Of a stretch of 64,000 nucleotides of DNA, positions 53,447-54,997 are shown piece by piece (the stretch's first letter is position 1; every line of letters begins with the position of its first letter). This DNA comes from Naegleria gruberi (Eukaryota): the NCBI GenBank assembly GCA_000004985.1, contig GG738906.1. One strand, 5' to 3'. Made by a program: the position numbers and the translations under genes. The notes below the pieces were generated by a model. It made no database searches. It had not been told where the DNA came from and saw only the letters and a program-made list of their open reading frames with translations.

Positions 53447-54997
53447 ATGAAAAGAACAATACTCTTTGCATTGGTGTTATGTATGATTCTTTGTATGTAC
53501 ACTGTTTCAGCAAACAATGCCGATGAATCAAAAGTTCCACCAGTAACAACACCTCCTCAAGAAGGTTTGGTTTCAACTACTCCTCCTACTCATCACGATG
53601 AAGAAAATGATGGGGAAACAACAACCATCACAGCATCTGTAACAGTCAAGGAGGAAGACAGTAATCAATCATCAAATGCTTCAACTTCCGCATCAAATAT
53701 TTCATCCCCTCAAAATAGTTCCTCTTCCCAAAAACAAGTTACTACTGGTAAACCAAAAAACAAGTCCAAGAGAACAATTCAAATAACTATTCCAAAAGAT
53801 TATGAAAAGTATCAACTTAAACCACGTGTCATTGGCGAAGATCAAAAGATTAGATTTTACAATGCACAAAATACTACATTTTATCAAAGAAAGTTGAAGA
53901 ATCCAATTCTTAAATTATGGATTTTGATTGTTGGTAGAAAGATGAAGAACAACTTGCCATACTTTACATACTCTGCAAGACGTTTCTTTGAAACTGCTTG
54001 GAGAAGAAATATTCAAGTGGAATTGATGGAAATTCAAAAGTTTGATTTACTCGTTTCACATGATGGTTCTAATTCTCTCATTTATGATGGTGAAGTTGTA
54101 CCAAGAGATGAATTCCCAGATGTTGTTTTACCTAGATTGGGTGCACAGTACGTTTTTTAATTATTTATTTAAATAACCTTGTTCAATAGTATTGATTATT
54201 GGGGATTGGCAGTAGTTAGACAATTTGAAAAGATGGATGTTTTGGTTCTTAATGGATTTGATTCCCTTGAAATGACTCGTGATAAGCTTCAAACATTACA
54301 GCAATTGGCTAAAGATCAAATTCCAATTCCAAAAACAATGATTGCTCGTTTCCCATTAGAAACCTCAATTATTTCACGTCATTTTACATATCCAATCATT
54401 TTAAAGAAATCTTCTGGTTCTCAAGGAAAAGGTGTAATGCTTATCGAAAGTGAAAACCAAATTAAGGGATTGGATGATATGTTGGATGTTTCCAAATCAA
54501 TGATCATTCAAGAGTTTATTCAAGCAAGCAAAGGAAGAGATATTCGTGTAATTGTTGTTGGTGGTAAGGCCATTGGTGCCATGATGAGAGTCGCTAAATC
54601 AGGATTTAAATCTAATTTCCATCAAGGTGGTTGGGTTAAACCAGTCAAACTTTCTAGTTCTTTGGAATGGTTGGCTATCACTGCTGCTCAAAGTGTTGAC
54701 TTGGACTTTGCTGGTGTTGATATTTTAATTGATAAGGATACTTACAAGATTTGTGAAATTAACTCTTCACCAGGTTTTGAAGGATTTGAGTTAGCAACCG
54801 GTCTCAATGTTCCTGAGCAATTTTTGAATTTTGTGGAATTAAGAACAAGTATTTGGAGAAAAATGGATAAGAAAAAGAAGAAGGGAAAGAATCCACCTGT
54901 AAGAATTCCAGTTGAAGCTGAACATGTTGTTGCCTCAAAGCCAACCAGCGATTCTCCAAAACACATTCAAGTTGGTTTGACAGGAAATCAACTTTAA
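53447..54997 (+). CDS. RimK/RIMKL-family ATP-grasp ligase preceded by a signal-peptide-like segment and a Ser/Thr/Pro-rich linker; 2 exons
   Basis: Exon 1 is 53447-54147 and carries the pre-ATP-grasp RimK N-domain (...LWILIVGRKM...VVLPRLG). A 42-nt intron at 54148-54189 (GTACGT...TTCAATAG) is in phase 2. Exon 2 is 54190-54997 with the ATP-grasp core (DIRVIVVGGKAIGAMMRVAKSGFKSNFHQGG...GVDILIDKDTYKICEINSSPGFEGF). Confidence 0.65.

Follow-up and report, generated by a model that had tools for sequence, protein, structure and literature searches.

In the 64,000-nucleotide stretch of Naegleria gruberi DNA analysed here (contig GG738906.1 of assembly GCA_000004985.1, referred to below as the window), a two-exon gene on the plus strand at positions 53447-54997 apparently encodes an active RimK-family ATP-grasp alpha-L-glutamate ligase, as judged from its sequence, and its product begins with a secretory-type hydrophobic segment. 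The reading that we prefer, with a probability of roughly 60%, is that this catalytically competent ligase would enter the secretory pathway co-translationally. No characterised RimK relative has a signal peptide followed by a disordered stalk, as the window protein has, and to our knowledge the characterised RimK-type and ATP-grasp peptide ligases (RimK, RIMKLA/B, LysX/ArgX, the cofactor glutamate ligases, glutathione synthetase and TTLLs) all work in the cytosol or the mitochondrial matrix. The parts of the gene are listed below, with residues numbered along the 502-amino-acid (aa) product. Structural evidence is taken from an AlphaFold2 (AF2) model of the N. lovaniensis orthologue P0001, which is 72% identical and stands in for the window protein; confidence is given as predicted local distance difference test (pLDDT) scores.

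53447-53512, plus strand: signal peptide or signal anchor, aa 1-22 (hydropathy, flank rules, equivalent segment in 13 homologues).
53513-53614, plus strand: low-complexity segment 1, aa 23-56 (composition; orthologue residues 21-48 with pLDDT <50).
53615-53647, plus strand: conserved beta-strand element, aa 57-67, ETTTITASVTV (N-terminal alignment; orthologue AF2 model).
53648-53770, plus strand: low-complexity segment 2, aa 68-108 (alignment, composition; orthologue residues 85-95 with pLDDT <50).
53771-53917, plus strand: protist-specific N-module, aa 109-157, RTIQITIPKDYEKYQLKPRVIGEDQKIRFYNAQNTTFYQRKLKNPILKL (alignment; orthologue pLDDT 91-96).
53918-54147, plus strand: RimK pre-ATP-grasp (N) domain, exon-1 part, aa 158 to the first two bases of codon 234 (Pfam Rimk_N; E. 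coli RimK alignment).
54148-54189, plus strand: intron of 42 nt (GTACGT...AATAG), phase 2, splitting codon His234 (splice reading; intron position shared with the orthologue).
54190-54844, plus strand: rest of the ATP-grasp catalytic core, aa 234-452 (Pfam RimK; invariant alignment columns).
54845-54997, plus strand: C-terminal tail, aa 453-502, and stop codon (C-terminal alignment, hydropathy; orthologue pLDDT about 70-87).

The gene model is based on two plus-strand open reading frames (ORFs), 53447-54160 and 54179-54997, which fuse into a single frame once the 42-nt GT..AG intron is removed. The resulting gene runs from the ATG at 53447 through exon 1 (53447-54147) and exon 2 (54190-54997, ending in TAA). 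No splice other than removal of 54148-54189 leaves the frame intact and also yields the RimK motif PRLGAHIDYWGLAVVRQFE, whose residues align one by one with PRIGTAITFYGTAALRQFE of Escherichia coli RimK. The GC content of the intron is 19%, against about 35% in the exons, in a window that is AT-rich (about 33% GC). In the N. lovaniensis orthologue an intron lies at the identical codon position (locus L001, about 6689-6789). Thus, the 42-nt intron proposed in a preliminary description of this locus is borne out by the frame, by the restored motif and by the shared position. The shared intron is about 100 nt long in N. lovaniensis, and the orthologue (L001, PYSW02000027.1, 6001-7725) is interrupted by a further intron (about 7027-7163), for which the window gene has no counterpart; exon 1 of the orthologue is continuous.

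Whether the hydrophobic segment belongs to the protein at all had been left in doubt in the same description, which considered a start codon further downstream, an undetected 5′ exon, or a separate upstream micro-gene carrying the segment. The in-frame methionines of the 502-aa protein are Met1, Met13 and Met17, and none follows before Met166, which lies inside the conserved domain. The conserved elements at aa 57-67 and 109-157 are both upstream of Met166, so a downstream start does not hold. The micro-gene fails as well, since the frame is closed by a TAG 78 nt before the ATG at 53447 and the upstream saposin-like gene has its own stop 460 nt before this ATG. Moreover, no stop interrupts the 157 codons ahead of the RimK core, as happened in 1 of 20,000 shuffles (33% GC genome), and the other two frames across them contain 6 and 10 stops. 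With no methionine between 17 and 166, a TAG upstream, a non-random open frame and a separate upstream gene, the hydrophobic segment must be translated. An undetected 5′ exon need not be invoked, since the same kind of beginning is seen in 13 homologues, one of which is a complete transcript. A gene-model artefact, in which translation truly starts at another site and the mature mRNA or protein lacks the hydrophobic segment and linker, could draw on the fact that an exact look-up of the 502-aa product and of the exon-1 ORF in the protein collection gave no match. It is very improbable in the face of this evidence and of the same architecture in the 13 homologues, including the complete transcript of Percolomonas cosmopolitus and the continuous exon 1 of N. 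lovaniensis.

A near-identical exon-1 ORF (P0249) was found in the exhaustive search of cluster representatives. It was also found that an environmental contig of 3,894 nt (L007; ENA ERZ929261, run ERR1078381, PRJEB11402) is 99.74% identical to window positions 51153-55043, and that within the coding sequence of the RimK-type gene it differs only at one synonymous site and by M17V, which is conservative and falls in the hydrophobic core. The 5′ intergenic region of L007 differs from the window by substitutions or 3-nt indels, and its gene caller cut the RimK-type gene at the intron into two prokaryote-style ORFs.

The form of the N-terminus is that of a signal sequence. Residues 1-22 fall into three parts: MKR as the n-region, with a net charge of +2, then ILFALVLCMILCM as a hydrophobic core of 13 residues, and YTVSA as the c-region, in which small residues occupy -3 and -1 before the predicted cut (V-S-A|N, Ala22|Asn23). 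The basic n-region, an h-region of 7-15 residues, the polar c-region and the small residues at -3/-1 are all present as judged by sequence rules only. MKRTILFALVLCMILCMYTVSA is the sole hydrophobic segment of the protein, reaching 2.33 in a Kyte-Doolittle window of 19 residues and no more than 1.25 elsewhere. Residues 1-22 are therefore predicted to be a cleavable signal peptide or a type-II anchor, two forms that sequence rules do not separate.

Equivalent segments are present in related proteins. The best protein match is a hypothetical protein of N. lovaniensis (72% identity), in which aa 1-108 have diverged with their character kept and aa 109-502 are conserved at nearly every position. 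The peak hydropathy of the N-terminus is bimodal across the homologues retrieved: 14 sequences reach 2.65-3.5, and the rest stay at or below 1.7. These 14 signal-bearing sequences are the window protein and 13 homologues, and the comparison set without a signal contains about 43. Signals are found in N. lovaniensis, Willaertia magna, two Acrasis kona paralogues, a complete mRNA of P. cosmopolitus, and genes on clearly eukaryotic metagenome contigs (with HECT, eEF1A, Sec1 and PARG neighbours). Since the Percolomonas transcript is complete, signal, stalk and ligase are carried on a single message. Thus, the secretory-type N-terminus noticed at the outset is real, recurs in 13 homologues and is conserved in several genera of Heterolobosea, with diverged sequence and kept hydrophobicity. 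The exhaustive search of cluster representatives added further extended protist homologues (P0246-P0256, P0274, P0275 and P0291), none of which has a hydrophobic N-terminus, so that evidence for the signal is confined to Heterolobosea-like sequences.

The orientation of the protein in the membrane can be approached from the charges around this segment. According to the positive-inside rule, a basic N-flank places the N-terminus in the cytosol. In 14/14 signal-bearing forms the n-region has a net charge of +1 to +3, the C-flank has a net charge of 0 or below, the uncharged run is 16-24 aa long, and there is no second hydrophobic segment. The small-residue site at -3/-1 is found in 13/14, the exception being P0023. 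Because the flank charges obey the positive-inside rule, the N-terminus would be cytosolic and the remainder lumenal, whether or not the segment is cleaved. The same charges bear on an alternative in which the segment is an uncleaved anchor and the RimK domain stays in the cytosol, either as an N-out reverse signal-anchor of the endoplasmic reticulum (ER) or as a mitochondrial outer-membrane signal anchor. The uncharged stretch does reach membrane-spanning length in some of the 14, and the cytosol is rich in ATP and glutamate; the flank charges, basic before the segment and neutral or acidic after it, are the opposite of those of N-out and mitochondrial outer-membrane anchors. An S/T/P-rich disordered stalk after an anchor is typical of the lumenal stems of type-II Golgi enzymes, and the window protein has such a stalk directly behind its segment. 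We consider a cytosolic RimK domain on this anchor unlikely, also because it leaves unexplained the following changes in the folded domain.

Signal-bearing forms differ from the others in features that are expected to matter in the lumen. The catalytic region contains a median of 1 cysteine (the near-invariant Cys422) in forms with the signal versus 4 in those without (Mann-Whitney p = 8.5e-7). At query position 142 or 174, 12/14 forms with the signal and 3/43 without it have an N-x-S/T sequon (Fisher p = 5e-8); at position 142, signal-bearing forms read NAQ-N-T-T and cytosolic forms NAQ-D. Cysteine depletion and sequon gain fit a lumenal catalytic domain and are supportive, not decisive.

As for the ligase itself, the assignment to the RimK family made in the preliminary description is confirmed by profiles and by alignment. 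Pfam RimK (PF08443) matches aa 263-447 with 1.1e-46 and 159 bits against a cut-off of 21, Pfam Rimk_N (PF18030) matches aa 174-256 with 5e-14 and 52.7 bits against 26.4, and TIGR00768 rimK_fam (RimK family alpha-L-glutamate ligase) scores 205.2 bits against 143.4. The cut-offs of the more specific profiles were not reached, neither that of the S6-ligase equivalog NF007764 (174 bits vs 331) nor those of MptN NF040720 (145 vs 350), CofF TIGR04443 (117 vs 300) and LysX TIGR02144 (146 vs 276). The best solved structure by sequence search is E. coli RimK (2e-43). K266, K306, D411, E423 and N425 align with its K100, K141, D248, E260 and N262, of which, from the RimK structures, we take the first two to be ATP-binding lysines and the last three to be the Mg2+ triad. 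All five are invariant in an alignment of 72 sequences, and the residues of the catalytic core listed as invariant comprise K266, K306, Q341-E342, R353, N376 and the Mg2+ triad D411/E423/N425 (54719-54763). The model of P0001 (pLDDT 85.6; predicted TM-score (pTM) 0.80) has RimK 5zk6 and 5zct as its top Foldseek matches (E = 1e-28, target-normalised TM-score 0.90).

This conservation bears on the view that the protein is a secreted or lysosomal/phagosomal non-ligase with a binding or structural role, or an enzyme active only briefly in the early secretory pathway. Such a protein would suit the missing retention signal, the lack of an ATP supply outside the cell, and the weak, compositional resemblance of the mucin-like N-terminal region to New_glue, a Pfam family of secreted glue proteins, which at E = 0.004 stays below the cut-off. 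Across the signal-bearing clade none of the ATP- and Mg2+-binding residues varies, and between the two Naegleria species the catalytic part is conserved at almost every residue, which argues for selection for catalysis and makes a non-ligase decidedly unlikely.

In the mechanism proposed for a lumenal ligase, the hydrophobic segment would insert with the N-terminus in the cytosol and would be either cleaved after Ala22 or retained as a type-II anchor. Stalk, N-module and RimK core would then be delivered to the lumen of the ER, the Golgi or a post-Golgi compartment, or to the cell exterior. Fuelled by lumenal ATP-Mg2+, the enzyme would there activate a carboxylate acceptor as the acyl-phosphate and, in the manner of RimK, attach L-glutamate to it in alpha-peptide linkage. 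The acceptor may be a small acid, or a secretory protein or peptide modified at its C-terminus. The gene may have originated from a cytosolic protist RimK-like enzyme that was duplicated and then gained the targeting sequence. It is possible, and is put forward only tentatively, that heterolobosean amoebae (Naegleria, Willaertia, Acrasis, Percolomonas) run a lumenal RimK-type glutamylation, which would give alpha-Glu tails on secretory proteins or peptides, or a poly-alpha-glutamate or acidic dipeptide exported in vesicles.

Several observations weigh against a lumenal ligase. ATP and free glutamate are limited in secretory compartments, and the enzyme, if simply secreted, would lack ATP. No ER-retention signal or other sorting motif is recognisable in the 502-aa protein, whose C-terminus has neither KDEL/HDEL nor a hydrophobic segment. 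We know of no ATP-grasp ligase that acts in the secretory lumen, and literature searches returned none. The p-values for cysteines and sequons ignore kinship, and the signal-bearing forms fall into about 3 lineages. Two of these lineages deviate from the trend, as P0019 is not cysteine-depleted (5 cysteines) and P0018/P0023 lack the sequons at 142 and 174. The polybasic C-tail is kept unchanged from cytosolic relatives; like the retained cysteines of P0019 and the catalytic motifs identical to those of cytosolic paralogues, it would also suit an anchored enzyme facing the cytosol. Sequon density in the linker is 2.0 per 100 aa, versus 1.6 in the N-terminal extensions of cytosolic paralogues, and without such separation it was dropped as a discriminator. 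Catalytic Asn425 is in the same N-S-S-P context as in cytosolic relatives; this sequon was likewise dropped as a lumenal signature, being an ancestral catalytic Asn followed by S-S-P in nearly all homologues and hence uninformative.

The linker between the hydrophobic segment and the core turned out to be more structured than the run of about 100 S/T/P/N-rich residues as which it had been described. Its low-complexity segments are there, and they are interrupted by the conserved strand at aa 57-67 and followed by a folded module at aa 109-157. Residues 23-108 (about 85 residues, mostly disordered) contain 30% S+T, 7% P and 7% N, a composition that is mucin-like (S/T/P-rich, disordered) apart from the strand, and the stalk is probably glycosylated. 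The first segment, aa 23-56, is T/P/E/D-rich, acidic right behind the hydrophobic segment and predicted to be disordered, with its character kept and its sequence not conserved. The strand has the pattern h-x-h-x-A-x-h, common to signal-bearing and cytosolic protist homologues, and in the orthologue model it spans 60-68 inside a 10-residue block of mean pLDDT 93. The second segment, aa 68-108, is an insertion confined to Naegleria/Willaertia; S, N, K and Q are abundant in it, with 13 Ser in 41 aa, and several N-x-S sequons occur. At the border of the disordered stalk and the folded N-module there is, in the Naegleria/Willaertia clade, a dibasic K108-R109 (53768-53773), which is K-K in P0002 and Willaertia; that it is a Kex2/furin-type processing site freeing the mature enzyme from the stalk is speculative. 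The Pfam New_glue match (E = 0.004) over the mucin-like region is compositional and was not accepted as homology.

The N-module holds the sequon N142-T-T (53870-53878), characteristic of signal-bearing forms. Prokaryotic RimK and RIMKLA/B do not have this module, which is conserved throughout the long protist homologues. Its consensus, ...PK..Y.LKP.viG...i.FyNAqD..FY.R.L..P...vW.L, is seen in the long protist RimK-like proteins P0007-P0055, cytosolic or signal-bearing, most of which share the upstream beta-strand and a C-tail as well (R.GvW+K, a polybasic run and h-x-h-PV-x-AEH; window 54845-54940). In the window protein the C-tail contains W-R-K, the polybasic run KKKKKGK, the conserved motif PVRIPVEAEHV and the terminal IQVGLTGNQL, the last being common to the main signal-bearing clade. 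The strand and the C-tail, like the N-module, are absent from prokaryotic RimK and vertebrate RIMKLA/B. This eukaryote-specific elaboration of RimK appears to be undescribed so far, and it may serve in oligomerisation, acceptor binding or autoinhibition.

The genes next to the RimK-type gene are as follows.

50784-52451, plus strand: intron-less CCT/TCP-1 chaperonin subunit, 555 aa (Pfam Cpn60_TCP1, 6e-149).
52570-52986, plus strand: small secreted saposin-like gene (SapB_1 2e-7, SapB_2 7e-7).
55026-56694, minus strand: convergent ORFs of 329 aa and 211 aa (the 329-aa ORF with weak TPR and IQ-motif matches only).

The saposin-like gene has its own signal peptide, M(V)MKFYQALLLCIVIVGCLSF, and a 45-nt GT..AG intron at 52810-52854 (spliced by eye), and its 123-aa product could, from its sequence, be a naegleriapore-like pore-forming protein. 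On the environmental contig L007, CCT, saposin and RimK follow in the same order. The two minus-strand ORFs are probably exons of one gene. The stop of the nearer one lies 28 nt from the RimK-type stop codon, so that the 3′ untranslated regions either overlap or are extremely short. No synteny of the RimK-type locus was found between the window and N. lovaniensis, where TRAP-beta lies upstream, and the neighbourhoods gave no functional clue.

In literature searches that paired Naegleria, a signal peptide, the secretory pathway, the lumen or the Golgi with RimK or ATP-grasp, nothing on this protein came up. In line with the expectation that a lumenal RimK-type ligase would be unusual, they gave no precedent for a secretory RimK or ATP-grasp ligase. 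If the lumenal reading is true, glutamate ligation would take place in a compartment from which no such reaction has been described, and the enzyme would be the first of the known ATP-grasp peptide ligases to work in the lumen of the ER, the Golgi or vesicles. It would also imply a new type of post-translational modification, or a secreted metabolite, of the secretory pathway, and the existence, in free-living and pathogenic-lineage amoebae (Naegleria), of a class of secretory proteins that are glutamylated, or of acidic peptides or metabolites that are secreted. The analysis also defines a protist-specific RimK elaboration, N-module plus C-tail, in proteins that databases mislabel as "N-acetylaspartylglutamate synthase". 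In a transcriptome of N. fowleri, a "probable alpha-L-glutamate ligase", paralogue unspecified, is up in trophozoites with a log fold change of 4.18 (PMC9959186).

The position of the protein within the family was assessed by identity and by neighbour-joining. Identity is 43-49% (270-308 bits) to uncharacterised prokaryotic RimK-family proteins of about 298 aa and 27-31% (91-98 bits) to vertebrate RIMKLA/B. The label "RimK/RIMKLA-type" of the preliminary description is thus right as to the RimK family and inaccurate as to RIMKLA. RIMKLA/B split from the protist-plus-prokaryote group in 100% of 200 bootstraps. Support is 28% for monophyly of the protist family, and for a single origin of the signal it is 48% in the main clade and 0% for all 14 together. 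The comparison with bacterial RimK and RIMKLA/B that had been called for sets RIMKLA/B apart. Since bootstrap support is weak, we make no claim on the number of signal gains or losses or on a single horizontal transfer. UniRef names P0001, P0007, P0012, P0013, P0022, P0031, P0036 and P0037 "N-acetylaspartylglutamate synthase", and the Joint Genome Institute names some protist homologues "gamma-F420-2:alpha-L-glutamate ligase"; neither the profile cut-offs nor the pairwise scores support these labels. In the prokaryote-type RimK proteins P0354, P0355, P0358 and P0371 (440-470 aa), an N-terminal extension of about 150 aa is fused to the ligase. This extension may presumably be the retropepsin-like/"ATP-dependent zinc protease" partner of rimK operons.

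Compared with known systems, the window protein is nearest in fold to bacterial RimK (E. coli, Pseudomonas; 4iwx, 5zct, 5zk6, 7qyr). The orthologue model has the same three-domain ATP-grasp fold, with 32-35% identity over about 300 aligned columns (Foldseek), and the ATP- and Mg-binding residues are the same. Unlike bacterial RimK, the window protein is eukaryotic and its gene contains an intron, and it adds a signal peptide, a stalk, an N-module of about 50 aa and a C-tail of about 50 aa. The enzyme is predicted not to share a compartment with the ribosomal substrate; S6 would not be its substrate, because the predicted compartment is without ribosomes. The closest relatives outside protists over the whole core are the prokaryotic proteins of about 298 aa (e.g., P0056, P0064, P0073), from metagenome bins of Actinomycetota, Peregrinibacteria, DPANN and Nitrosocaldaceae, which have neither a signal nor N- or C-terminal extensions; the bacterial gene neighbourhood of P0064 consists of unrelated housekeeping genes and gave no functional clue. 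Vertebrate RIMKLA and RIMKLB, the N-acetylaspartylglutamate and beta-citrylglutamate synthases, share the Pfam RimK superfamily with the window protein and are likewise eukaryotic. As ligases of small molecules they work in the cytosol, and they lack the N-module, the C-tail motif and the N-terminal hydrophobic segment. Cytosolic protist paralogues (Naegleria P0037/P0042/P0054, Acrasis P0007/P0012, Plasmodiophora P0036, Percolomonas P0026) have the N-module and core in common with the window protein at 45-56% identity. Most of them share the beta-strand and C-tail too, the C-tail being absent from Naegleria P0037/P0042/P0054; they differ in having no hydrophobic N-terminus, more cysteines, and Asp at position 142. 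Finally, type-II Golgi enzymes such as glycosyltransferases and Fam20C-type kinases, the latter relying on lumenal ATP, have no homology to the window protein and perform other chemistry, and the likeness is one of layout only: a short basic cytosolic tail, a hydrophobic segment, an S/T/P-rich disordered stem and a globular catalytic domain.

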